Part shown: positions 14,918-42,367 of the stretch, piece by piece | Position numbering within the stretch: position 1 is the stretch's first letter | How the letters are laid out: the number at the start of each line of letters is the position of its first letter | Origin: Blasia pusilla | Taxonomy: Eukaryota | Length of the DNA: 64,000 nt | Assembly: GCA_050084515.1 (NCBI GenBank) | Contig: CM114271.1 | Coordinates: 28,768,001 to 28,832,000 of the forward strand | Direction: 5' to 3' | Notes under the pieces: model-generated | The model's database searches: none | What the model saw: the letters and a program-made list of their open reading frames with translations, nothing else | Told to the model about the DNA's origin: nothing | Translations under genes and position numbers: made by a program

Positions 14918-15389
14918 TCCAAGAAGATTCCACCGAGAGGAGACAGAGAATTGGTATGAGAATGAGAAAGAGAATGTTTAATTTATAGTGAATAGGGACT
15001 CAGATTCTCCTGACAGAATTTGACTGACAAGATGAAGTTTGGTAGTTGAAAATTTCTAACACAATGGATTCAATTCTGTTGCAACTTTTCGGAGTCAGGT
15101 GGGTTGCAAAATTTGGGAATCAGAGACGTTGGTTGCGAAGCATGCACTTCTTTTTGTTGGAACCCGTTGAAGTCCGTTGGGTTGGTACCCCCTTCTTGCC
15201 GACCAAAGGTCTTTTGAGTCAATTTTGCTAGCATCAAACACAAGATATCGCTTGCATATGCTAAGGCAACCAATCGTTGGGGACTTTTGCGGGATTTTCC
15301 AACTCATGGTAGATCTTGTGACCCATTGGATTGCAATGGGTTGCCTCGGAACTATGTGTTGTCGCATTATTACCCGAGGGATAGAAAAG

Positions 15390-16030
15390 CGTGCAACCTG
15401 TTGATAACCGACGGGTTGCCCTGGTACCTCGCCTATTAACCCAAGATAAGCAAAGCGTGCAACCCGTCGGCTTCGGACGGGTTGCACGCTTCTACCTCAC
15501 CTTGTAACGCTAACATGAAGGAAGCGTGCAACCTGTCGATCTCCGTCGAGTTGCGCGGGTGCCGCGCCTTCTTGCTCGAAGATGGCAAAGGGGCGCAACC
15601 CGTCGGCCTCAGACGGGTTGCGCAATTTCCTCACCTTGTAACACTTACATTAAGGAAGCGTGCAACCCGTCTGCTTTCGACGAGTTGCGAGGGTGCCGCA
15701 CATTCTTGCCCAAAGACGGCGGAGGCGCGCAACCCATCGACCTCAGACGGGTTACGCAAGTGCCTTGCCTTGTAATGCTTACATGAAGGAAGCGTGCAAC
15801 CTGTCGACCTCCGACGAGTTGCGTGGGAAGCCCGCCTTGTTATCCCAAGACGAGGGAAGCGTGCAACCCACCAAAATCCAACGGGTTGCGCGGGTACCTT
15901 GCGTTCTTGTCCGAAGACGGCATAGGCGCGCAACCTATCGGTTTCTGACGGGTGGCGCGGGTACCTCGTGTTCTTGTCCGAAGACGACGGAGGCGCGCAA
16001 CCTGTCGGTCTCCGACGGGTTGCCACAAGG
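15390..16030. repeat. Tandem palindrome array (about 65-70 bp units) between the divergent transposase and cargo promoters
   Basis: About ten units of (AAGCGT)GCAACCCGTC..GACGGGTTGC separated by two recurring, related spacer types. Confidence 0.9.
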
Positions 16031-19003: not shown

Positions 19004-20278
19004 TGTCGTATAGTAAAATCAACCAGTGTGTAAACTCCTTCGTCATTAAGTGTTAGATAGAGTTTCATTTGTATTAAGTAAATTGGCTTAGAAAAAGGAG
19101 ATTCTTATGTTTAAACCTCTTTATGGTGCCTCTTTTATGCGGGCCCAACTTTAGGAAAAGGAGGTAATAAATAAAAGATGACTTTATAAAAGTAAAGTAG
19201 TTGCTTTAATGAAAAGCAAAAGTAGTCTTGGTTGGTGGCTAGATTAGTTGGGGTAATTTGGAAAATATCATGTGGGTAAAAGAGGATATTTTGGAAGAGA
19301 TAAGAGGAAATCTACTTATGTCAAAATATGATTGGCTAAGCCTTGAGAGGAAGCGATGTGGCACAAGATAAGATAAGCTCTATTTCATACTCTTGTGGAT
19401 CCCTTGTGAGTATATAAATAGGAGGGACCTTCAAGGGTTCATCACCTTCTATTCCACATCTTGAGTCTCTCGTGTCTCTCTTGAGTGTATGGCTTTGGGA
19501 TTGCTTGCTCTTCCAATGAGAGTGGATCACCCTTCTTGGGAGAGTAACTTGACCATGGTCTATTCTTCGAGAGATTTCTAGAGTGTGGTGTGTGTGTGTG
19601 TGGGGATGAGAGGTTTTTCACCGTAGAGGATTTTAGTCATACTAAAATACCCGATGTTTTGGCTTGTTACTTCCCCAATGAGAGTGGATTACCCCTCTTG
19701 GGAGAATAACTCTGCCAAAACTCATTCTTGAGGAGAGTAGAGAATGTCTGTCAAGCATGGATAGGGGTGGAGCACGAGCTGTGCCCGACTTTCCTTTCCT
19801 CAATCCTTACCATGTCAAGGTACTCTTTGTAGATAGGCACTGGTTCACTCGCTATTTAGTTTATCACTTTGGGGAGGCATTCATGAACCAGGTCATGCAA
19901 TCTCCAACTCCGGTGATTCTTCCTATTGTCACATATGGAAGGACATAGGATTGTATTTTGTATGTCCTTATATAGCGATCCATGGATGTCAATAGGCCTG
20001 CTCAAGTAGGGTTTAACACTAGTTGTGCTGTCTTCCTCGTGTACAAGCGTAAAATAGTTTATAGGGATTTTATAGTTAGGAATTTTGGGGTCCGATGTTA
20101 CGAAGAAGTGATCGCCTCGGCACTTCCATTTGTGATACCTGTCGTGAGAGAATGGAGAGTGTACATCATAATTTTGTATTGAAAAATGAGAACTTATTAG
20201 AGAGTTCACCTTGCATCGACCGCATCTACCGCAGCTAGAAGGCCTGCCCTTGCTCGAAGAAAGACTCTCGACACGACA
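19004..20278 (+). repeat. 5' LTR (1275 bp) of the outer Ty3/gypsy element
   Basis: 6-bp inverted termini TGTCGT/ACGACA; TATATAAATA at about 19411. Confidence 0.85.
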
Positions 20279-20280
20279 AA

Positions 20281-20298
20281 TGGTGCTTCCACTGAGAG
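20281..20298 (+). other. Primer-binding site, probably tRNA-Thr(AGU)
   Basis: TGGTGCTTCCACTGAGAG lies 2 nt after the LTR. Its reverse complement resembles the 3' end of plant tRNA-Thr(AGU) as recalled from memory. Confidence 0.6.
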
Positions 20299-23200
20299 CT
20301 CTTTGAGGCGGTAGTTTGTGTTTGCAAGTTGGAGTCTTATCAAGATGACTACTTTTGGGAGTACTTCATCAATGGGAAGTGAGGGAGTTGAGGATCTTCT
20401 CCGAACTTTGACAACATTGTTGAGCCAACAAGGAGGAGTTCACATCGGAGAGCAAAGATCAACAAGGGCTCTCCAAGCGATTGTGAAGAAGTTGGGGAGA
20501 TTTGATGGAAGGAACATCACCAAGTATGTTCGAGAGTACGTCTGTGAGATGGAGGTAAACCGTGTATCCGAAGGTGATATGGTGTCAAGTTTTGAGTTAG
20601 CTGTAATACCAGAGATCCGTAGTCAAGTAAAGAAGTTGAGAGCAGAAAATCCAACCTCATGGGGAGGAGTACTGACGATTCTTTGAAAAGGAGAATTCTT
20701 CGATGATGATGTGGATCGGGTGACTAAGAGGAGTTTTCTAGAATGGAAAGAGCAACGTCCAGGGAAGGGAATGACTCCAAATGAGTTGTTTCGTGAGTTT
20801 GAGAAGCGGTTTTTTTAGCTTTCTCCTTCTGAAAGGGCTATCATGACCGTACGGATTATGTCGTAGAGTATGGTGTGCTGGTAGAGGCCATTCCTTATGT
20901 AGGACCGTAGTGGCTTGGTAGAGATGTGGTTCCATACATAGGGTTGGGGTTACTCACTTGGGGTGACTTTCCTAGTAGGGCCCGCTCTTGGTTGGAGGAT
21001 ATAAGGTGGCTTGCCCTCAAAAAACGATCAGTTCTTTGAGTTGAGCCTGTTGCGTTGGGAGTTAGCCTTGGTAGTGAGTAGAGCTCTTGGCTATGGTGTT
21101 TCCGCAAGCCGACCTGGATTCTCCCATCGTGGAGTGGGTTTGGCTCGATTGTATGTGATTGTAAACGTGTTTTATGACAAATGAGGTCTTTCACGGATTT
21201 CACTCAAAGAACCGGAGTAGATCGATAGTAGCTTCGATTGTAGATCAAGAGGGATCTGGTTAGGGTGATTGTGTACTCAGCCGTGGATGTTCGGGCTTGT
21301 TGCATATGTTGGAGGTGTGAATCAGGTGCGTGGTTGGTTGGGAAAGAAGCGCCTTGCTGAGAGCTTTCCAACGCGCTGTAGATCGCCGGATTTCGTCAAG
21401 GGAGTTGGAAGTTATCAAGCATTGAAGATTCTCGGTTCGTGTTCGGCGCTTTTCGATGTGGAGAGCTTGGAGTGCGGAAGTGTGTTGAAGTTCATCCAGA
21501 TCGGGTGAGAGGTTCCTGATGCTACTCGTATTGTAATCTCCTGTGAATCTATCTGCTCGAGTGTGTGGAGAGTTGCGGATTTCTACGTGCATGGAACTTG
21601 GCGGAAGCGCTGTCGGATTTGCGATTCTGGAGGTGTATGGACATCAAGTTTGTTTGATTCTTAGCTCGGAGTACAGAGCTCGGTTGTAGCTGATTTTTTG
21701 TGGAGAGATAGCTATGGTGGTCTATTGAATTCTGATCGAAACAGATTTGATTTCGGTCACGTATTTGTGAAGTAATTTCTGATCGAAATTTCGCAGACTA
21801 GCTCGAGGTCTGGCTATGGTGGACAGCGGATCGGAGGGGCTGGTTGGTTGGTGACTCGTTCATTTTTGGAGACGCCTATCCCATTGGGGGCACCCTGGTT
21901 GGACCTCTCTCCATAGCGAAGCATGGCGAAGCGTGGCGAACGGGGCATGTCTCGGCGTTTTGAGGCTTCGAGGCAACTCGTGGTAGCTCAAGCAGTGGGC
22001 GTGAGAGGCGGAGTAAGGAGCAAGGAGCAAGCAAGCAAGCTTGCTTGCTTGGGCGTGAGGCAATTTTTGCAGGATTTGGGATTTGAGTTTTGCATAACTA
22101 GTCACCCATCTTTGGGCTATTCTGCCTGGAGGACGCTTAACTGCTGAGTTCTTAACTATGCCAGTGTAGAGACTGTTGTAGCTCATTTGGTGCTGTTCGG
22201 AGATGTGTTAGGCGCTTTATGCATCTCAGGTTTTTGGTTGATGTACCTCTAGCGCATAGTACGGTGTAGCCTCTCCATGCAGGTGATATTTTCAGATGCT
22301 GCGAGTTCGACTAGTATGTCATCGACCCGCGGCGGAGTAGCTATTGCGTTAGAATTGTGTGGTGGGTTTTGTGGATTCAGAGGGCACCACGTTTGGTGGA
22401 TTGTGTTACCTTGATTTTCATTTGCGGTTGGAGGGTTGTCGTTGGACTTCAGAATCGGATCCCCTCCATCGTGCTTTTGCTTGCTTGCGCCCAATGTTAG
22501 GGTTGACGCTGATTTCAGAGTAGTGTTACTCTTGTGTGCTACTGATAGTGAGGCTGGAGTGATGACCAGTAGACCGTGGGAGGCTTCTTGTAGTGATGAG
22601 AGGTTAGATTGCCTACACCCATAGCTAGTAGAGCTACAATAGTAGAGCCACATCGCGTCACTTGGATAATTTGGTGGTGGTGCGGCATCGGCGTTGGTCA
22701 TCACTGTCGGGTGGTACGGTTGGGGACCGTGGTGCGGATAAAGTGGTGGTTTCACACGGAGTGGATTTAGGTATCGGTTCGACGGTTGATGAAGAGGAGG
22801 ACCAGGGTGTTCCAAACACCGAGTCTTCTACGTTGTTATCGAGTGTTGCAGCTCCATTGATTTGGGACATGGACGGTGGATATGGGGCCATGAAGGGCCC
22901 ACGACGATACTCAGGTGCAGTGGGCACCATTGAGTTGGAGGACTTCATGCAGGAGTTTGATACGTGGTGTGATATGCGGATGTTATGAACGCCACGTTGT
23001 TTACACCCTTCTTGGCTTGGAAGGGTTGTTTCAAAGACTTGGAAGGACCACCCATGGATGATTACCATGAGTTTAGGAAAGACCATGTTCTTTGAGATTG
23101 AGGCGTGAGACAATATTGGTCTCCAGGCTATGTGTCTATCACCCATGGTGGTATTGGTAGTAGTGCTCCTACTATGCCCGGCCCGGCCCGCGTTGAGTGG

Positions 23201-25509
23201 TGCAGTACGAGCCGGAGTGGGGGTACCAAAGTGGAGGTACTAGTGGGGGTACTAGTGGAGGTATTAATGCCCCACCATCGTTCAGCCCGATTTGCAGAGT
23301 TCTTCAAGAGGTTGAAGAAGAACTATCAAGGAGTGAAGACGGAGAAGTTGAGGAATCTTCAGGACTTTGAGCGAAAGGCGGTGAGAGTCTTCGTGAGGCA
23401 TACACGCGTATCGACGCTTGATTTCATTACCAGGGTGTGGCGAGGATCAGCGACCCGTTTTGGTATGGGATCTTGGACAGAGATTTGCGCCGTAGGGTGC
23501 GTGATGCTACTCTTATGAGTGATGATTCACCCACATTGACCCATGTGTTTGCTCTATCTCGAGAAGATTGAGCTTAACATGGTGAAGGAGAAAGTGGTGA
23601 CATCCGCATTCAAGAGGGGATACAACTACTACTTCTCGGGTTCAGCCGCCCACCTCACGATCTCGTAGTAGTGGTGGTGGTAGTAGTAGTGGGAGTCGTG
23701 GGGGGTACACGCGACCTCAATCAAGTCCTAGAGGGACATTTGTGCAGAGACCATTGCCTTCATTTGCTGCCCCGCAGCAAGGACAGTCATGTTGGACATG
23801 TGGAGGTGATCATGTTAGGAAGTTTTGTCCCCAAGAGGATGGGAGACGGACTTTGGAGGATGGGCCTCAGTCGGCCCCAACTCAGTGTGATCATTGCGGG
23901 AGACTAGGTCATCCTCGAGAGCGTTGCTTTGATCTCCATCCAGAGTTGAGATCAGGCCGTGGCCGTGGTGGAGTAGCTCCGAGAGGCCGAGGTGGTAGAG
24001 GTGGTAGGGGTGGTAGAGGTGGACCAGTGGTTGGAGAGCCTACGGTGGCTACCCCTACCACTACGACAGTCACTATGGTGCGGGATTGATCGATTGGAGC
24101 GAAGTTGGCTACTATGGTGGTATCCAAAGATAGATCGGTTCGGGAGCAGGGCTTCCACCTCTTATGGAGGAGATGATCTCTCTTATATGGCGAGTGCAAA
24201 GACAGTGAGGCATCGGTGCGATTTAGAGGAGCCACTCGAGCGTCGAGAGCCACGTGGTGCTCTTGTGGAGTTGGACGCCTGAGGGGTGAGGCCGGGAGGC
24301 GTGCTAGGCTTCCCAGTCATTCTTGTTGTCGAGGTGCTTAGGACTCCATCCATGGTTCCTCACGCAGCCTATTGAGCCGAGTGGGGATCGAGGCATCTAC
24401 ATCAGCGTGTAGTAGACACGGATGCAGATCAATGCAAAGATTGTGCGGATGGCAACTTCGGTGTTAGGATCCCCATTGTTTTCGGCCACGGAGTGATGGC
24501 TTTAGGAGTTGACTTAGCTCTGTATTTGATTAGCGCCACGTTGTGTGAACGGGGGTGTTATCTTTGCATGGTGTTGAGGTGGATGAGGGTGTTGCGGTGG
24601 AGCGACCCTCTATGTCGGGAGTAGCATTGAGTACCGGTGCTACTTGGCGAAAGCGTGGCGAAGATGGATGCATTACCAGCCCGGCCAGCCATTGATCGTG
24701 AGAGGCTTACACCTTGTGTATGTATGTTGGACAACCGAGTGGGATCTTCCGATTGGTAAGTCCTACAGGACAGGTGTATAGACCAGATAGAGTCTTGTTA
24801 GACTCTGGTGCCCAACCTTTGATGTTGGGAAAGGCGGCATGTATTGGTTTGGGTATTCGGAGGTCAGAGCTTGAGCCTTGCCCATTCCAGATTCAAACAT
24901 CACTTGGAGGAGCCAATGATAGGTCTCCATTCATGACACGAGAAAAGTTTTCTGTACAATTGAGACCAAATCATGCGACTGATAGCTCCCGGTTGGGAGT
25001 ATCTGCGGTAGTCACATCAGCCGAGTCGTATGATGTACTAGTTGGAGGAGCGATGATTGTACCGATGGGTTTTCAGATGGATTTCGGGTGAGACAGCGTC
25101 CCATAGACCAGGTTGGCAGTCCGAGGATGGACGTATGAGCCAAGTTCCTGTGAGATTTATTTCTGGGGCTCGACCAGGAGGGTCTTCCCCAACAGTGTTA
25201 GCATCTGTGGCTGGTTTTAGTGGAGTAGTCACTTGGCCAGGAGACTTTTTGGAGGGTAATGTTTCTGCTATGGATTCTCTGCGCATGAGGAGGTAGAGGA
25301 GGTCCCTACTTTTGCAGCGGTGGCATCCTCATCGTTGGATGTGCCACTTTGGAGTTCAGCGGTGCACTACGGCAGAGGTCGATCGCCTAGTGCGAGGAGG
25401 CTTGGTGTGAGGCTGTTATACCTCACGAGGAAGAGGAGGCCCCACGGCGGACTCCTACGCCTGGCTTGATTAGGTTATCCCCTTTGGATACTACACCCAT
25501 TGTATGGCA

Positions 25510-26460
25510 AGTATCCGCGGAGGGCATTTGTGTGTTAGATCTCTTTGGTGGGATTAGCACTGGTTTGGCGGCGATGTTGCAGGCGGTATTCGTGTGCGGA
25601 GATACGTGTATGTGGAGCGAGATGAGACGGCCGAGAGAGTCTCATCGACATATTGGTCGATTGATGCGGAGATATCTGAGTTGTTGCCGCCATCGGCTAT
25701 TCGTGGGTACCGGCGTGCTTTACCATCACACATTGCATTGTTGAGGCGCGCAGGACCTTGAGAGGTTGGTCCTGTGGATTTGGTGATTCTTTGGATGGCC
25801 ATGTCGAGGGGTCATACACGTGTTGCTCGTGGTGAGGGATTACATGACCCTAGGTCTCGATTGTTTTGGGAGATGTTACGGGTGTTACGACATCTTGAGT
25901 TCATCGAGCACGTTACTAGCTTACATTCTGGAGAATGTTCCATTGTTAGGTGACACTCGAACCGGATGATGGCGAGTGTTCATGAGGTGCGGTCTTGATT
26001 GACCAGCGGTGTTGTTGGATGCAACGCGAGTTGGCTCAGCGTGCACATCGTCCACGCTTGTGGTGGACAAACTTGTTGCCTAGGAGGTTCTCGTCAAGCA
26101 TATGATGCGGTCTGGCGGGATCCTCGCTTACAATGGATAGTATCTTGAATCTTGGCGACTTTCTCAAGTGGTGAGGGTTATTGATCGGTCACCCATGGCG
26201 GTGGTGAACCGTGTGGGCGACCTAGGATGGCACTACCCACATTTGTGAGTTTTCCGCGTCACATGCCTACGAGGAAGGTGGTCCGGGGGCTTGTATGGGA
26301 TTCTCATGTGCGGCAGTTGGTGGAGCCTAACGCTGATGAGAGAGAGCGTGCGATGGGATTTACTCTTGGCGTGGCGGTTGCTTCTATTTACGAGGCTTCA
26401 CGACGTCATGTGTTGGGTCGGCCATGGACTGGGAATTGTTTGACTTGGATTTTGAGTCTT
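25510..26460 (+). pseudogene. DNMT3-like C5-cytosine methyltransferase domain within pol
   Basis: Motif I VLDLFGGISTG; IV VDLVI..WPC.G (about 25775-25810); VI YILENVP (about 25922); VIII AHRPRLWWTNL (about 26043); IX ERERAMGF; X RRHVLG..MD. Confidence 0.85.
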
Positions 26461-29400
26461 GGTATGGCCCAAGCGTCGACTTTGGACTATGTCGTGGGTC
26501 TTCCACCCCTTGTAATGAGCTCGATGGCTAGGGGACGGTAGAGGCATCGGTGGGGCAAGGAGAGTAGTATTTTGCATCCTTGGAGTAAATGGGATGTAAT
26601 GGATGGGCATGTGGAGTTGGTTGCTCATGCTGGTGGAGGAGTTATTTGCTCAGATGATGGTGTAGCTAAGGGTGTATCATCTTGTGAGGGGATTGCGTAG
26701 CAGCCAATGGCATCGTCCTCTCCCTCTAGTGTGCCAATGGAGGAGACTTGGGAGCCATTACTTGGGCCCAAGCTTACGGGGGAGGTGAGAAACGACGCTG
26801 CCACGGTTCCTACGTGCTTATAGGAGTTGTTTTGCCTTTAGCATGAAAGAGTTGGGTTCTCTGGTTGGACCCGGTATACGGATTGATTTGGCTAGTGATA
26901 CGCCAATCTTCCGTCGTCCCTACCGATGTAGTGATATGGAGAGGACTTGATTGAGTAGGGCGTTGGATCTTTTGGAGGTGGATTAATGGAGTTGTTGCAT
27001 GGAGAGTATGCATCGCCCTTTGTCATGCTGCTAAAAAGGATATGCATGGCAACTACACGGATAGGCGGATGTGTGGAGATTACCGTCCTATCAATCGGCA
27101 AACCAAGGCGATAGGTATGCCATGCCTACACCGAGGAGATCTTTGATGTGGTGGGCGGCAAAGATTTTCAGTACTTTGGATCTTGGCGAATACCATCAAT
27201 TGCCGATTCGGAGAGTGACAAGGCCAAGACAACATTTTGGGGTGTCAACTCTCATGGCAAGGATTGTTTGTACCGGTGGAAATTCTTACCCTTTGGGTTG
27301 AAGAATGCACTGCCGAGTTTCAAAGAGTGATGGACGGGATCCTAGCGGGGTTGGATTTTGTTCGGTGTTACATTGATGATATCTTGGTGTTGAGAACACG
27401 GTGGAGGAGCATCGATACATTTGCAGATGGTGTTTGAGCGGTTGAAAGCTCATGGTCTACGTTGCATCCAGGAAAGTGTAAGTTCTTCCATGAGGATGTT
27501 GAGTACTTGGGTCATGTGATCTATCCGGTGGTTTGGGAGTTCAGCAAGCAAAGGTGGAGGCTATTGCACTTATTCGCGTCGATAGATGTGAGTAGAGTTC
27601 GAGCATTCATGGGATTGGCGAACTACTATCGGAGGTATGTGAAGGGATTTAGTGCTATGGCAAAGCCTTTGAACCAATTGCTGAAATCAGATCAAGAGTG
27701 GCACTGGGGAGATGATTAGGAGAGAGCTTTTTGGAGCTTAAGGCCAGTTGGTGGCGGCGCCTATCTTGAGGAGACCTATCGAGGGCGCCCATTTCGATTT
27801 AACCGATTGGAGTAGGTTGGGACTTGGAGCGGTGTTGACACAACATGATGATGAGCACATGGAGTTTGTGGTGGCCTATGCAAGTCGTTCGAATAATGCA
27901 AATGAGTCGCGCTATAGTTCATATGAGGGAGAGTGCTTGGCAAGAGTGTGGGTTGTGGCACACTTTAGGTGTTACTTGTTTGGCACACAATTTACCCTTG
28001 TTCATGATCACCGGCCCGCTCAAGTGGTTGATGGAGTCGGACAAGCTTACTGGGGAAGCTTGCACGGTGGGCTCTTATCTTACAGAGTATGACTTCCAGG
28101 TGGTACATAGACCTGGAGTTGCCAACCTTGATGCTGATGGGTTGAGTAGGAACTCATGTACTAGCCAAGAGGATACAACTAGGGCTAGATGGCATGGCGA
28201 GGTTGATGAGGAGATGGTGCCAGGTTGGCATGCATCCGCCTTTTTATGTTGGTTAGGGGTGGACTCTAGTATGGAGGACCACATGATATCTTATTCTAGT
28301 CGAGGGTAGATGGCACCTTCTCAGATCCTAAGGTTGGAGATGGTGGTACGGATCAGCTTGATATTCATGATGATGCGTTGGTGTTGGAGTTCCTACAGAC
28401 CAGTAGGGTGCTAGGCATAGTGAGTGCCAAGGAGCGAGACCGTGTTCTTCAACGTGCTAAGAGGTATCGATTGGAGGAAACACATATTCTCCGCGTGTGG
28501 GAGGATGGTAGAGTACGAGTAGTGCCACATTTGGCTCAGAGAGAGCGCATTGTGCGACATGCCCATGAGGAGTTGGGACATTTTGGGGTAAAGCGTACTT
28601 ATAGCTTACTCCTTGGTGAGTATTGGTGGCGTGGCATGCATACTCAGGTGCAGCAGTTGGTGTCACGTTGTATGGTTTGTGACCGGGTGAGGGCATCATT
28701 TAATGCCCCTACACCACAATTACACCCCTTGCCTATTATGGGGTTGGGTTACCGTTGGAGTGTGGACTTTGCGGGACGTTATCGTTGATTCATACAACAT
28801 CATCGATATGTGTTGGTGATGGTGGAGCACTTTTCCAAGTGGATTGAGTTGGTGGCATTACGGACAAGGCAAGTGAGGGAATGGCGTATCGTTTCGGATA
28901 GAGTGCTTAGTCATTTTGGTGCACCAGTGAAGTCTTGACCGACCAGGGTATAGAGTTTGAGGTGAGTTTGGTCTTGTGTGACAAGGCGTTGATTGATCAT
29001 CGGACCACGTCTCGAGATCATCCAGGCGGATGGTTTGGCTGGCGTGTGGTTGAGGCGGTGAAGAGGGCATTGCGCAAGTATGGCCTCTGAAGGGCATCTT
29101 GAGACAGGATATTCGGTTGCCATGGTTAGCCATGGGGTATAGGTTCGATCGCCAAGCATCCTTGGCTTCCTTCTCACCTTATTTTTCATTATACGGCCGA
29201 GATCCGGACTTGCCGGCAAGCAAAGCAATTGTCGGGAGTCTAGTGAGGTGGTGAACCTTGATGACCCAGAGATGTGGATGAGGGTGTGTTCTCGGCGGGC
29301 GGAGCTCTTTCGGAGAGTTATGCCATGACCTTTGAGAATCTTGCCATTGCTCAACATAGGGATACGTTGCGGTATGCAACCATTCGGGTGGAGGTTATCG

Positions 29401-29646
29401 ACCATCGATTCAGTAGGTTCCATGTGGGGGACTATGTCTATTTTAGCAGATTGCCCGACAACGTTGGATGTGGCCAGCCGCACTATTTTACGAAAGTGCG
29501 TGAGGTGTTAGCTTCTAGAGTTCTCATGTTGGAGGGTCGTGATGGAGTTGTTTGGAAGGACCATGTGCGTAATTGTGCGCCATGTCATCTTCCAAATGTG
29601 GATGGTCTTATTGACCCAAGCTTAGCCATGATACGTGCTAGCTTGA

Positions 29647-29781
29647 GGTGCATGTTGTGTGGGTGCTTGTAATGGTATGTTGGTGTGTGATCGGTGTTCT
29701 AGGGGTTGGCACATGATGTGTTTGACTCACGTTTGGATGTTGTTCCTCTTTGGAAGGTGGGTTTGTCCTCGATGTACTTAG
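29647..29781 (+). pseudogene. PHD finger at the integrase C-terminus
   Basis: CMLCG...MLVCDRCSRGWHMMCL...WVCPRC* (C4HC3) across frameshifts. Confidence 0.8.
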
Positions 29782-32700
29782 AGAGGTAGATGACTTGATC
29801 TTTGCATGATATGGATTACAGAGATGTGCGACTAACGATGGCGCAACCTAGCACCCGGGATTCGGGCACCCAAGAAGGTGTATAGCATGTAGTAGATGTA
29901 TAGGGCTACTTGGGGGAGTTAGAGGACCTAACCTTGATTAGGGGGGGTTGTGGTACACTTGCGTTTGTGGATACTCGTCTATGTTATGTATGTATGTGCG
30001 TATGGTATGTCGGCGATGTATGTTGTATGGCGATGAGGATTCGTGACGACAAGCTTGTCATGACCATACGGATTATGTCGTAGAGTATGGTGTCTTTGGT
30101 AGAGGCCATTCCTTGTGTAGGACCGTAGTGGCTTGGTAGAGATGTGGTTCCATACATAGGGTTGGGGTTACTCACTTGGGGTGACTTTCCTAGTAGGGCC
30201 CGCTCTTAGGTTGAGGATATAAGGTGGCTTGCCCTCAAAGAAACGATCAGTTCTTTGAGTTTAGCCTGCTATGCGTTGGGAGTTAGCCTTGGTAGTGAGT
30301 AGAGCTCTTGGCTATGGTGTTTCCCGCAAGCTTCGACCTGGATTCTCCCATCGTGGAGTGGGTTTGGCTCGTTTGTATGTGATTGTAAACGTGTTTTATG
30401 ATAGTAAGTCTTTCACGGATTTCAGTTGTGGTACACTTGCGTTTGTGGATACTCTCGTCTATGTTATGTATGTATGTGCATATGGTATGTCAGTGATGTA
30501 TGTTGTATGACGATGTGGATTCGCATGACAGGGCAACTCTAGACTTGAGGAAAACCGAGTTATTCCTTGAGGCGGCAGATGAGAATTTGGAGGACAAGCT
30601 TTTCATAATGTTGGCGGACAAGAATGAAGAAGGAGATGTCAGCACTAATTGGAAGAAAGTGGAAGAAGTTGTTGCTATCCTCACAAAGCAAAGTCGAAGT
30701 AGAGGTAGAACCACAATATTTAAGTCGGAGGTACCAATTTCAAATCCATTGCCTAAGCCCATGCCAGCAAAGCTTGAAGATTCTACCATTGATGAGTTGG
30801 TGAAAGGTTTGAGAGAGTTGAGAGTAGAAATGGCTGAGCTTAAACTTGATAGGAATCCTAGTGTTGGTGCTCCTTCAATAAGTAAGAACTTTGTGAGAAG
30901 ATGTATATGGTGTGATAGTGTTGAGCATCAACGTCGAGAATATGAGGAATTTTCAGAAGCTCTTAGAAATGGAATAGTAAACTTCAAAGATGGGAAGATT
31001 CATTCAACGCAGACTGGTATGCCGTTGAATACCAACTTTGGTAGAGGAGGTATGAAAGGCTTAGTGAGAAGTCAAGTAGGAGTTGCCACTACGACATTAG
31101 ATTCTTATACCTTTTCAGTAAAAATAGAAGCGCCTATTGTATCTGTAGCTAAAAGTGAATCATTACAATTTCCTCGAGAAGTGATGATACAAGGGGCAGA
31201 GACTATCCGTCATCTGACTGGATGGGATGATCCAGTGGAAGTTGGGTGTGTTAAAGCATACCTAGCACAAGAGAAACATGTGAGTTGGCAAGATGCTAGT
31301 GTGGAGGAGAAGAGGAGACGCGACAATGATGGTGCTGATTTTGAGGAAGATGCAAGAAGAGCGAGGACTGTAAGAAGGAAAGGGCAACCAGAGGCGCAAC
31401 CGTCAAGAGAAGAAGGGCCTTCTACATCTGAATTTATGATGGATTCTCAAATGAAAGAAGGTGGAATGAAGGAGAACGAATTGAGGTCTCCTCAGAAGAC
31501 CAAGGGTAAGACTCCTACATACAAGTTTGCGATCGATATCGAGACAAGCACCTAATTTAAAGGAGATTCTTGAGGAGAGGATTTTGGATGCGAAAATAGA
31601 GTTTTCTTTGAGGGAAGTCTTGGGCATAGCCAAACGTGACTTTCATGAGTTGATCATAGATGTGATCAAAAGGAAGAGGCAGATGACTACAGATATGGTG
31701 ATGGTGAGAGCTTTGGATACTGACATCACAGAAGAAGAAGATGAAGAGCTTTGCCAAGTGTTTGGACAAAACCTTGACTTACGCGGAAAAGAGGCGAGAG
31801 TAGGAGAAGCCTTGAGAGAACAAGGTGAAGACAGGCATAATGGTGGACACTATTCTCGATCATATTGGGCGCGTGCAACGACGGAGGCTAGAGTTCGACT
31901 TGGCTCTCTTTAAGAATCAGTTTTGGCTCTCGTTGATCATGGTTCAGAGATCAACATCATGTCGCGAAGTGTGTACGACAAAGGGATATGGCCAATTGAT
32001 ACAGGGCATGGATGGGTACTACGAGCGACTAACAACCAAAAAGGTGAACTCTATGGTGCTTGTCCATCCGTCAAAACTCGTATCGGAGATGTGTTGATTG
32101 AGCAAAATTTCTTTGTTCAGAATAGAGCTGCTTATCCTATGATTCTTGGGCAACCTTACATCACAGCATCTAGAATGGAGACCAAAGTCATGGATGATGG
32201 GTCTCATTATGCCCGTATTAGAAGTCAGGATGGAACAAGATCAGTTCAATTCCCTTCTTTGTCATTTGAGTAGGTCATGAAAGGAATAGAGAGAAGTTGA
32301 GAGATGGTCCTATGAAGGTAGAGAAAGAGTTTTCGGATTTTTAGTTAGCATTCCTATAGAGCGGGAATATGGGGGTGCAGAGAAAAGAAAGAGTCTTCCG
32401 CTAGTAGAGGGGGAAGAATCATATATGTTTAGGTGTGGGTTTTCTCAATGTTTTTCTTCGTGGTCTAGTAGATTCCAAATGATGAAAGAAATGAATGAAA
32501 AGAAAAGACGTTTTATGAAAAAAAAAGGAGGGTTTGTTAAAATGTGAGGGTGTTCTATTAGATGAAGAGTTCATTAGTGGGATGTATGAAGAAGAGGGTT
32601 TTGGAGATAGTCTTGAAGAGGTGTTTACCCAGATGAACATCGATTCGCTGGATACAAGTGTGATTACAATTCACTCGCGTGAGTTGCATGAAGAGATATC

Positions 32701-33182
32701 AAGGTTCATGGAAGGAGAAAATGAAAATGAATATATGGAGAAGGAAGCGGATGGGCATGGGTTTGAGTCTGACGAACATCCCATGGAGGCACAAGTGCAC
32801 ACAAAATACAAGACAGTGGCCCGGAAGGTGAAACCAATGGCTACTCAACTACCAGAGGGTTGTGGGAGACAAGTAGAACGTGCATCAATGGAGCCAAGTC
32901 TGCGGGATATCAAGAAGATAGGACATAAGTTCACAGAAGAGATGCTAGATCGTCTGCAAATCGGAGGGGGTGAGTTTCTCACAGAAATTGAAAGAAAATG
33001 CTTTCGGGAGATGTTAAGGAGACATGGTAAGGCTTTCTCTTTTACAACACAAGAAATTGGTTGTGTAGACACGAGTGTGGTGGCACCGATGGTAATTTTC
33101 ACAGTTCCACATGTGCCTTGGGATTTGAAACCCATACCAGTACCATGAGCTATGATTCCCAAGCTGATTGAGTTATTGAGTT

Positions 33183-35578
33183 CCGGAGGAAGCAAACCTG
33201 GAGAGTGCTGAAGATTTTGAACTTTGGCTGGATGACATGCGGGACGAGCCCATAAAAAACCCAAGTTTGAGGACGATGTTCAAGGATTGCATCCTCCCTC
33301 AGTCAGACCTTGATGAAGAAATAGAGGCAGAAAAAAGGGATTTCGCAAAGAAGAAGCGAGATCTTCAAGAGCAGGCGGCCGATGCATCTCGACTAAGAGC
33401 TGCCCAATGCATGGTGTTCAGGAACCTCGTCGATTGTAAGAATGCAGGTACATGGCAAAAAATACCGGCAGCCTGCAAATTGTGGGCTTCTCCACTGATG
33501 GAGAGACATTTTCCATGTACGACATGGGGATGGCTCAAAGCATGTCTGATTGGGAGGTGGAGAATTGCCCGATTTGGCTGGACTTCAACGACCCTGAGGA
33601 CATAACTGAGAAAGATCTACGCCTACTCTATGATGCAGTGGCGGCAGGTAGGGACGATATCCCCAATTTTGTGCAACCTAAAGACTTTTTCGAAGGAGAT
33701 GCGGAGGAGCAAGCCCTCGAGACAGCGGAGTTGGTGTCCAAGGTCATCACTGCCAAGGACAAATCTACAACGGGTCTCAAAGCCAAGGCGAGGGGATAGA
33801 AGAATTTCGAGGCCAAGTCTTCCCAAAAAGAGGTTGAAAATTCAAGGCGAGAGCCGGAATCATCCGGATGAGCGGGGAGAGAGGGTCGGACCAGGTCCTC
33901 CGCAAAAAAAACTCCACCAGAGTCTGAGGTCATAGAGACCCCAACAAGCCAACCGCAGACTCAAGAGAAGCAAAAGCGAGAGGCGCCAGGGTTTTCCCAA
34001 GGAGATGACCAGGATGTGGAATACACTCCATCATCCTTGAGAAGACATAGAGAAACAACGACCTAGACAAGCGTCATCCTTCACTGCACGAATCTTCAGG
34101 ATGAGCCGAAAAGTTTCAGTTCCCAAGCGTCGACATCCGCCATTGAAAAATTGACAACGTTGGGACGGAAACTTCAACAAAACGGCCACGCTCCCTGGAC
34201 GGTCCATGGGGAGATCGAAGAGGTGGCGGTGGATATCCTCGTCGCTGATTTGCCCTCGAGGTTGCGCTTGTGGGACGAGAATCCGTCCGACAGGGTCCCA
34301 GACTGGAATGTCCCTCTTTCTTATGACCGGATCGCGCTTCTGTTTTCCTTTGCAGACGCTTATCTTAGTGACAGGGGCTTTTTCTTAGTTTTGACTGGAG
34401 GGAGCGAGGACGAGCTCTTCAACCTCCAGTGCGTCAAGAGGTCCCTAAAGTGGAGGACGGCGCAATTGTGGATCATCAAGAACGAGTATCCACTCCGATC
34501 CGCGACAAGTCAAATTCGGGTAAGGGCTCTAAATTTGTATCCAAATTGTCTTTCTCCAATGGGTTGCATCTCTGCATACAACCCGTCGGATTGTTTGAGC
34601 TGGGTCTGTTTGCAATCCGTCTGAAAGTGACGGGTTGCAAATTTACCGCAAGTCTCCATTGGGTGAATGCAACCCGTCGGAACCCGACGGGTTGCAAGTG
34701 CTAATGCTTTTGCAATTTTCTAGAATGATGCAACCCGTCTGAAAGTGACGGGTTGCTCTAAACCAGAAACCTGTCGCCTTCCGATAGGTTGCTCATGGAC
34801 AAAAAAATCACAAGACACTTGTAAAACAACCTGTCGGACTCCGACAGGTTGCTCCAATGTTAGGATTATAAAGGAGTTCTTTGGGGACATGTTGCACATT
34901 ATGTCGCCATACTGAGAGTAGACGAGTGGCCAAGTAGCTCTTTGTTGTTGCTGACATTGTTTCCAACGTGCTTCTTTACAGATGGACCACTCCTATGTTT
35001 ACTGCTTTGTTCGGCCCGAGCAAAACTTCCAGGTGTTTAAGATCCTGGATCCTGTGTATCCATGCTCCGATGGGTACAACTTAGATAGTTTATACAATTC
35101 CCCCCTGGGAATTTACATGCAAGACGGTACCCCTTTACTTGGAGGAAGGGAAAAGTCACCAGCCCTGATGCAAACGCTCATCGAGCTCTGCTCAAGGCCG
35201 GGTGACTTAGTGCTCGACTTAGTGGGCCTTTCAGGGGCGAGTATCAGAGGCGCCTGGTAGAGTGGCAGGAACATTCTCTGCCTTGAGGGAAGGCAGCAAC
35301 TGTTTGACCTTTGCAAGGAGGCAAAGGCAGATATTACGACATGCTAGTTGGGGCGTACAACTCTCCTCGGCCGAAAGCTCGGTTCGGACCCACCATTGGT
35401 AGTGACACCATCGTCATTTCCCACGATTCTGAAAATCGGGAGGGCAAGGCCGACAGTAATCTTGGAAGAGCTCTCGGATGATGACGAGTGAGTTCAAAGA
35501 ACTCAAGGACCCAGCTTGACTGCAGCGTTTGGAGTAGGGATTTATTTGATGACGAGGCAAAAGATTTCATAGAATAGA
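33183..35578 (+). pseudogene. Cargo gene copy C, 3' part: beta-class N4C/N6A DNA methyltransferase-like domain (intron 34520-34981)
   Basis: Motifs in beta-class order: VDILVADLPS (IV), LFSFADAYLSDRGFFLV, WIIK; then after a phase-0 GT-AG intron DHSYVYCF and REKSPALMQTLIELCSRPGDLVLDLVGLSGASIRGAW*SGRNILCLE (X-I-II). Confidence 0.75.
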
Positions 35579-41632: not shown

Positions 41633-42367
41633 TGTCGTGCGCATACATATCGCTACACAACATACATCCCTGGTCATATCTACACCATACAACATCGATC
41701 TTCCCCACACACGGGTCGATCCACACATGTACAAAAATAAACTCATACATATACATGGAGATCACACAACAAAAATAAAGAGTAGTAAAAACGACACACC
41801 TGGCCTAAAACTCCTCTCCTCAATCTACATCGGCATATCGAGCCATGTCCACCCTGTGCTATCAAGGAATCCGAACGCTAGCACCCTAGTCCGATCTCAC
41901 ACACATACAAGGGAGGTGCTCCAACGGCCCAACATGAGATTATATAGGGTTAGGAAGAGCCAAAAGGCTCTTCCCCTAAAAATAGCCCTCCCCTTGGTAA
42001 CCTGCGCACACAGGTTACCAGGGGCGGGTGACCTGGTCAACAAGTCACCCGGCTGTAAAAGACCTCAACATAAAAGTTGTCAGAAACAACGTTCTTGACA
42101 CAATGGACCTATCCTCAACCTCATCCGACACTGTGGGACAAAGTTACACTCAAGATAGTCCGCTGGCTCCTACGCCCTATAAACGATAGATCTCGGCCTA
42201 TCGGCTACTCAGATGTGACAGTTGTCGTGCGCATACATATCGCTACATAACATACATCGCTGGTCACATCTACACCACACAACACCGATCTTCCCCACAC
42301 AAGGGTCGATCCACACATGTACAAAAATCAACTCATACATATACATGGAGATCACACCGCCCCTAGC
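41633..42367 (-). mobile_element. 3' end of a second Ty3-like element with PPT-B-A-B repeats
   Basis: Direct repeat 41633-41766 / 42223-42356. Minus strand reads TAGGGGCGG, B1 ending CGACA, AC, TGTCA starting A, then B2 ending CGACA. The B 3' end resembles B of 29949-30051. Confidence 0.7.

Follow-up and report, generated by a model that had tools for sequence, protein, structure and literature searches.

Positions 20839-30530 of a 64,000-nucleotide stretch of the Blasia pusilla genome (assembly GCA_050084515.1, contig CM114271.1, positions 28,768,001 to 28,832,000 of the forward strand; 'the window' below means this whole stretch) hold one 9.7-kb insertion, classed by its domains as a Ty3/gypsy retrotransposon, in which two direct repeats, A and B, stand in the order A1...B1-AGCT-A2-B2. 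Retrotransposons with long terminal repeats (LTRs), and retroviruses, are taught to integrate by both ends of a linear complementary DNA (cDNA), and circles in which the LTRs have been joined count as dead ends. In the family described here, the repeat that reverse transcription would define and the ends that the integrase has used are out of register, in many independent insertions from several diverged lineages; given this mismatch, the integrated copies would not be producible by standard end integration of linear cDNA. The best explanation overall, to which we assign a probability of about 0.55, is that the integrase opens a site inside the LTR of a cDNA whose outer ends become joined, the site in the upstream LTR being preferred. 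The window copy is an old, broken member of a bryophyte Ty3/gypsy lineage whose normal integrated form would be A-PBS-...-PPT-B-NN-A-B, where PBS is the primer binding site, PPT the polypurine tract and NN a short spacer.

A repeat finder, BLAST and pairwise alignments delimit the repeats, and the sequence together with empty-site contigs delimits the target-site duplication (TSD), as follows.

20835-20838, plus strand: left copy of the TSD, GGGC
20839-21201, plus strand: A1, the left terminal repeat, which starts TATCATG and ends GGATTTC
29946-30051, plus strand: B1, which ends ...GACGACA
30052-30055, plus strand: AGCT, the spacer that separates B1 from A2, at the middle of a perfect palindrome, GACAAGCTTGTC (30048-30059)
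30056-30423, plus strand: A2, the second A copy, TGTCATG...GGATTTC
30424-30530, plus strand: B2, the second B copy, which ends CATGACA, the right end of the insertion
30531-30534, plus strand: right copy of the TSD, GGGC

Similarity between the paired copies is far above chance, with A1 and A2 93.8% identical over 369 nt (E 4e-157) and B1 and B2 92.9% identical over 99 nt (E 9e-38), and BLAST detected no further A or B copies of the element within the window. Two B-like matches on the minus strand, at 41633 and 42223, were rejected as element copies, being only 39 nt long and having no family pol beside them. A1 would comprise the 3' part of U3 followed by R and U5, and B1 the 5' part of U3. 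The insertion ends form a 7-bp inverted repeat, T(G>A)TCATG at the start of A and CATGACA at the end of B2. An initial annotation, made from the letters of the window, had recognized this split arrangement, and its boundaries needed adjustment by only 1-3 nt; its reading of the A2-B2 joint as TTCA-GT-TGTGG is better replaced by ...TTTC/AGTTGTGG, with zero extra nucleotides and an ambiguity of 1-2 nt that arises because the PBS and B both begin with A.

The window insertion is a single event. Contigs of three public sequencing runs fuse positions ~20833-20838 directly to 30530-30535 (two contigs in run X2, one in X8 together with one variant joint, and one 2,567-nt contig in X9), in agreement with the chromosomal joints initially proposed, namely where A begins and where B stops, flanked by a TSD of 4 bp. 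The accompanying claim that the GGGC duplication leaves the host gag frame restored also holds, the host codon split at 20837-38 resuming at 30535 in frame (by eye) with a 352-residue open reading frame (ORF) at 30497-31555. Depth in runs X2, X8 and X9 marks the element family as highly repeated in the host, and other copies in the host's own runs show B-NN-A joints with a 2-nt spacer, AC and GC. A 408-nt contig of X9, a run that may be RNA, crosses A2/B2 and was left out of the evidence.

The landmarks of reverse transcription lie in or beside these repeats.

21000-21005, plus strand: TATAAG box in A1, 31 nt upstream of the predicted RNA start
21031-21041, plus strand: GTTCTTTGAGT, putative self-primer and predicted transcript start (start of R), with a second copy in A2 at 30250-30260
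21202-21212, plus strand: PBS of self-priming type, ACTCAAAGAAC, immediately 3' of A1, as it is in relatives
29921-29945, plus strand: PPT region, ending in a G-run (29941-29945) that directly adjoins B1

The PPT adjoins B1 in relatives of the element too, in the conserved form ...CTAGGGGGGCG/AGTTGTGG, and their TATA[AT]A box lies 32 nt upstream of the predicted RNA start. GTTCTTTGAGT is the reverse complement of ACTCAAAGAAC and holds a fixed place, at a distance of 169-171 nt from where A ends and 31-32 nt past the TATA box. In the window the complementarity is 11/11, with 4e-4 such sites expected by composition, and within the 64 kb the motif is confined to A1 and A2. Of the 13 distinct relatives that have an A1, four match 11/11 at that position, five 10/11, one 9/11 and one 8/11; in 2/13 the best match to the complement of ACTCAAAGAAC lies elsewhere. 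This pattern fits Tf1-type self-priming, with the 5' end of the RNA predicted from the TATA spacing. Minus-strand priming just after A1 and plus-strand priming just before B1 would together give, by ordinary reverse transcription, a cDNA with B-NN-A at both ends, and the initial annotation had correctly derived a B-spacer-A LTR from the same two adjacencies.

The element meets the chromosome at the start of A and at the end of B, two sequences that lie opposed inside the predicted LTR as CACGACA-NN-TGTCATG. In 17/17 relatives the spacer has a length of 2 nt (AC in 10, GC in 4, AT in 2, GT in 1). The predicted outer ends of the cDNA in relatives, AGTTGTGG... and ...CATTTTC, carry no terminal CA. 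If the ends of the predicted B-NN-A-PBS-interior-PPT-B-NN-A are joined and the molecule is opened at the upstream NN, the result is A-PBS-interior-PPT-B-NN-A-B; that is, the integrated form reads as a circular permutation of the predicted cDNA, from which it would follow that the A2/B2 junction is made anew in each round and never copied from the parent. The AGCT spacer and its palindrome would be the recognition and cleavage site of the integrase, and by analogy this internal site looks like a built-in version of the LTR-LTR junction of retroviral two-LTR circles.

Main-subfamily copies bear on the origin of the A/B junction, which is precise in 9/11 and carries insertions exactly there in 2/11: L013 has one extra G, and L008/L009 have 19 extra nt, the last two being CG. 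No indels were found at the templated B-NN-A junction of these copies. Given 18 indel events across 570 columns, the chance that two fall at one given site is ~5e-4, in a test devised post hoc. Both insertions end in the last bases of the PPT (G, CG), as expected if the left cDNA end sometimes retains primer bases, and they accord with the earlier impression that A/B resembles a newly made end-to-end junction. Within the 19-nt filler an 11-nt stretch recurs that is present in A just upstream of the A2/B2 junction, and the sequence looks like the templated filler of error-prone end joining.

Relatives were obtained by scanning metagenome contigs with an alignment of the integrase-PHD region; the best 80 of the 300 relatives found were fetched, and A and B queries from the window and from seven well-defined loci were mapped on them. 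Matches to A or B occurred in 57/80 loci, the 23 loci without them having short flanks or belonging to distant lineages, and the 57 collapse by their flanks to 42 distinct insertions with the following 3' structures.

17 distinct insertions: PPT-B-NN-A-B, then flank
19 distinct insertions: PPT-B, then at least 300 nt of flank
1 distinct insertion: contig ends at B
1 distinct insertion: B-A, then interrupted
1 distinct insertion: internally deleted, ...A-B
3 distinct insertions: no 3' end or repeat

The A...B-A-B layout is family-wide, not a one-off. All 12 informative 5' ends in relatives, and that of the window, read flank followed by T(G/A)TCATG; B-NN stands ahead of A1 in 0/12, and the case that would have refuted the initial reading, most copies with ordinary B-A...B-A repeats, is contradicted by these ends. 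The mirror form, A-B-NN-A-PBS...PPT-B, was likewise seen at 0/12 informative 5' ends, against 17 insertions of the A...B-A-B form. Ten complete copies, including that in the window, have a 4-bp TSD that is perfect in 8/10 and agrees at 3 of 4 bases in 2/10; among A...B copies with both flanks (n=6), it is perfect in L002, L024, L050 and L062, with agreement at 3/4 positions in L027 and L058. On the integrase tree A...B and A...B-A-B insertions are intermingled. Insertions of the diverged lineages (L036, L063/66, L064/65, L069, L071, L072) have A...B-A-B at the 3' end in 6/6 distinct cases, and in the main subfamily 19/30 insertions with an informative 3' end have B only. No B repeats were found within the short 3' flanks of the distant intact relatives L029, L035, L059 and L067.

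We propose the following course of events. Transcription would begin in A, ~31 nt past the TATA box, and, as the conserved complementarity suggests, the first 11 bases of the RNA would fold onto the site just after A1 and prime the minus strand in a Tf1-like manner; the PPT, judging by its position, would prime the plus strand at the start of B. A linear cDNA flanked by B-NN-A LTRs would then result from ordinary reverse transcription, and its outer ends, AGTTGTGG... on one side and ...CATTTTC on the other, would not be integrase ends. The integrase would use the inverted half-sites TGTCATG and CACGACA, which face each other across a 2-4-nt spacer within the LTR; the outer ends of the cDNA would be joined, creating the A2/B2 junction in every round; and the molecule would be opened within the upstream LTR, at its internal site, and its insertion would create a 4-bp duplication. 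The upstream LTR could be cut on linear or unfinished cDNA, making A the left end, and its site may be preferred as the first to become double-stranded or as lying only ~117 bp from the DNA end. For the right end there would be two options: the freed B stub, with the outer ends joined before or after strand transfer, would give A...B-A-B, and the B of the downstream LTR would give a dead A...B form. We speculate that this asymmetric route covers both forms seen as well as the absent third, the mirror form, whose count of 0 favors asymmetric upstream cutting over random cutting of a closed two-LTR circle. The general proposition, in which an internal, junction-like site of a cDNA with joined ends is the target of a DDE integrase, has a good footing in the topology, draws support from the conserved landmarks and the junction filler, and is still unproven. 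The fuller one, that in a streptophyte Ty3/gypsy lineage the integrase sites have moved to an internal near-palindrome, joining of the cDNA ends has become obligatory and only the upstream site is opened, is offered tentatively, at slightly less than even odds.

Several observations weigh against this explanation. Every mechanistic step is deduced from integrated copies alone, all copies studied are old (A1/A2 86-94% identical), and the relatives are metagenome assemblies. A...B insertions (19) are about as common as A...B-A-B insertions (17), and may arise either at integration or by later deletion between B1 and B2; terminal branch lengths do not separate the two forms (medians 0.060 and 0.050, P 0.41), in a test that is weak because all copies are old. 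The mirror form could have collapsed to A...B through its adjacent 340-bp A copies, which would remove the argument from asymmetry. The spacer is 4 nt (AGCT) in the window versus 2 nt in relatives, mostly the non-palindromic AC; the AGCT initially given as part of an att-like palindrome does not hold for the relatives. The junction-filler evidence comes from two copies only. Finally, L013:1-2713 and L015:38-2750, contigs of separate samples, share 99.4% identity as far as 2 nt past the end of B and are wholly different thereafter, one running into A-B and the other into unrelated flank; they reflect either a recent duplication or a chimeric assembly at a repeat, which suggests that some A...B contigs lacking both flanks could be assembly chimeras.

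The alternative that survives best, although we consider it unlikely, is that ligation turns the finished cDNA into a closed circle with two LTRs, and that the integrase cuts either of the two identical internal palindromes at random and integrates the opened circle. Its topology is identical to that of the asymmetric route, and it too accommodates PPT-derived filler at the A/B junction, filler at retroviral circle junctions being of a comparable kind. Random cutting, however, predicts that A-B-NN-A-PBS...PPT-B should be as frequent as A...B-A-B, against the 0/12 and 17 observed, and the scheme is saved only if the mirror form decays far faster to A...B. The idea of the initial annotation that the integrase acts on an internal site of circularized cDNA accordingly agrees with the topology, but is not supported in the form of a simple symmetric two-LTR circle. 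There is retroviral precedent for the chemistry: the integrases of foamy virus (PMC1180852) and HIV-1 (PMC1905944, PMC4372172) are reported to cut the palindromic two-LTR circle junction, where a DDE integrase acts, as proposed here, on inverted CA/TG half-sites across a 2-4-nt spacer to give processed ends. In retroviruses that junction is confined to a by-product circle and the route counts as minor or is debated, whereas here a junction-like site is part of every LTR and is apparently the only one used.

Less probable again is a route without ligation, in which reverse transcriptase would add the right-end B by a third template switch, from the U5 end onto the start of the upstream LTR, and the integrase would pick the first left half-site and a right half-site on the resulting longer linear DNA. 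Such switching would yield A...B-A-B, A...B and solo A-B, and never A-B-A...B, which matches observation, and end-to-end template switching by reverse transcriptase would fit junctions that are mostly precise with occasional extra bases. The U5 end and the PPT side have, however, no homology to guide the switch, the 19-nt filler of L008/L009 is more like error-prone end joining, and this route is also deduced only from integrated copies. That A...B is the primary form, with the 3' A-B added after integration, or that the window layout is a one-off rearrangement or assembly error, is very improbable and largely refuted: the 19 distinct A...B insertions, six with both flanks and four of these with a perfect TSD, speak for it, but the same B-NN-A-B and its junctions recur in 17 distinct insertions of several diverged lineages as well as in the window, the other copies in the host runs show B-(AC/GC)-A joints, and an A...B copy, having no downstream R, would not be reverse-transcribable by the predicted route.

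The coding interior of the window copy is full of stops (134-151 per frame). Stop-free pieces were used for a Pfam search, which gave matches in 4/20 and none in 16/20, to RT_RNaseH, Integrase_H2C2 and, weakly, rve and PHD; tblastn with two relatives (P0015 and P0044) gave the succession protease, C5 cytosine DNA methyltransferase (C5-DNMT), reverse transcriptase (RT), RNase H, integrase, PHD finger.

23601-24086, plus strand: gag remnant, with two zinc-knuckle-like motifs by eye and no Pfam match
24714-25358, plus strand: protease region with stops and frameshifts (tblastn to Marchantia P0044 residues 123-337, 56% identity)
25391-26451, plus strand: C5-DNMT domain, broken (tblastn to P0044 residues 236-694)
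26792-27716, plus strand: RT, broken (tblastn to P0015 and P0044)
27742-28089, plus strand: RNase H (Pfam RT_RNaseH, E 8e-22)
28300-29663, plus strand: integrase with H2C2 zinc domain, DDE core and C-terminal region, broken (Pfam and tblastn; Integrase_H2C2 E 7e-17, rve E 0.002, below the Pfam cut-off)
29647-29778, plus strand: PHD finger at the integrase C-terminus (weak, E 0.003)

The nearest named proteins come from the liverworts Calypogeia, Riccia and Marchantia, and also from Sphagnum; Marchantia P0044 has a matching protease-DNMT-RT-RNase H run, and PF00145 is found in P0044, in other Marchantia proteins and in the near-intact relative L029. L029 carries Asp_protease and DNA_methylase in one ORF and, past a single in-frame TAG, RVT_1, RT_RNaseH, H2C2, rve and PHD. 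All 14 aligned relatives keep the integrase D, D and E unchanged, with 35 residues between the second D and the E. By its sequence the element is therefore Ty3/gypsy, as initially annotated, from a lineage with a DDE integrase of working type: the order protease-RT-RNase H-integrase with H2C2 and DDE (rve) is present, as are a short TSD and TG...CA termini (TGTCATG...CA(C/T)GACA). Two whole LTRs at the ends are lacking, the 5' end having A only and the PPT being followed by B-NN-A-B.

Many relatives carry a PHD finger (E 3e-10 in L029, ORF2 residues 990-1034), at the position of the integrase C-terminus where chromoviruses have a chromodomain, and, counting the DNMT, the element thus has two modules related to chromatin. 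In L029 (5083-5085) and L033 (4661-4663), from different samples, the single in-frame TAG stands at an equivalent place, separating gag-protease-DNMT from RT-RNase H-integrase-PHD, and is followed by the codons CAG TTA and CAA TCA, respectively. CAR-YYA is the context of tobamovirus-type stop-codon readthrough; since the TAG context fits it, pol in these elements may be expressed by programmed readthrough.

Split direct repeats in the order A1-B1-A2-B2 are known from the PAT/Ngaro/Viper tyrosine-recombinase retrotransposons, and A1...B1-A2-B2 is the defining layout of PAT/Ngaro (PMC4157794). The likeness extends to the internal B1-A2 downstream of the enzyme genes and to an integrated form implied to be a permutation of the end-joined form. 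Those elements use a tyrosine recombinase and, to our knowledge, integrate without a TSD, whereas the present one combines 4-bp TSDs and TG...CA ends with a DDE integrase, a PPT and a putative self-priming PBS. It shares the layout that a PAT/Ngaro/DIRS-like route would explain, in which a tyrosine recombinase, from elsewhere or in trans, recombines circular cDNA with the target, but we give that route hardly any credence, considering the perfect TSD in 8/10 complete copies, the inverted TG...CA ends and the invariant DDE triad. No Phage_integrase match was found in the 2,416 codons of L029 or in the precomputed Pfam lists of full-length (2,300-aa) relatives, and L029 contains no further ORF >169 aa, which leaves no room for an additional recombinase ORF. 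With no recombinase found and TSDs present, the element is no member of PAT/Ngaro.

Elements of this kind have already been noted in print. The legend of Fig. 4c of de Mendoza et al. 2018 (PMC5890265) gives KnitGypsy-Dnmt3 of Klebsormidium nitens a DIRS repeat structure together with Gypsy domains, so that the layout is not new, as had been considered possible at first. The element described there is an LTR retrotransposon of Gypsy type whose pol includes a Dnmt3-type C5 methyltransferase, and the bryophyte family has both the C5-DNMT inside a Gypsy pol and the DIRS-type repeat order. The hosts differ, Klebsormidium being a charophyte alga and the named relatives here liverworts and Sphagnum, and the main-text section and legend of that paper give no PBS, PPT, TSD, junction sequence or mechanism. 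No Klebsormidium-named proteins were among our 46 and 42 homologue matches, in searches limited by length and shared words. The visible parts of a 2026 preprint refer to streptophyte Gypsy-DNMT3, with no account of junctions, priming sites, TSDs or mechanism. A literature search on Gypsy or integrase elements with split direct repeats, with subscription journals and Repbase outside its coverage, returned only the 2018 legend and no paper that discusses the mechanism.

Predictions of self-priming exist for the Tcn1 clade of mosses and club-mosses and for plant TAR elements (Neumann et al. 2019, PMC6317226). As in Tf1/sushi, Tcn1 and TAR elements, the putative PBS here lies directly after the predicted U5 and is complementary to the predicted start of the element's own transcript rather than to a tRNA; those elements have ordinary whole LTRs, and in the present family self-priming is a prediction from the sequence. 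Troyka (Kojima 2025, PMC12440569), initially named as a multi-LTR gypsy group for comparison, proves a poor parallel: it is an animal lineage near Gypsy, unusual like ours in its non-canonical termini, but as described it is defined by 3-bp TSDs and CG...CG termini and is no split-repeat or multi-LTR group.

The surroundings of the insertion contain three more long direct-repeat pairs, 83-90% identical (6015-7118/33181-34286, 3100-5491/16108-18480 and 39088-40771/60733-62421), which show old LTR elements nested in the window; the element interrupted in its gag by this insertion may have the first pair as its LTRs. At least 23 copies of a hairpin-forming palindrome of ~30 nt (TGCAACCCGTCGGA..CCGACGGGTTGCA) lie in other repeats between window positions 892 and 38221, for example at 34668-34714 and in a 67-bp tandem array at 15387-16023. 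Over positions 20001-34000, the coding strand of the element and its host element has a GC skew of +0.22 to +0.30 and more T than A, the element itself containing 3086 G versus 1782 C. The repeats of relatives are likewise G+T-rich, so this strand asymmetry may be a family trait rather than a product of decay.

If the proposed route is correct, a DDE integrase would be able to use an internal, junction-like site as its normal substrate, and in these elements the circle-junction model of retroviral integration, since abandoned, would be realized in nature as an obligatory route. Split repeats, a layout regarded as characteristic of tyrosine-recombinase elements, would then have arisen independently in Gypsy, through a DDE-integrase route convergent with that of the tyrosine-recombinase retroelements. 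Software that searches for two whole LTRs would mis-annotate an abundant bryophyte family. As the family has intact members, in a plant group that includes a transformable model liverwort, the question is directly testable.

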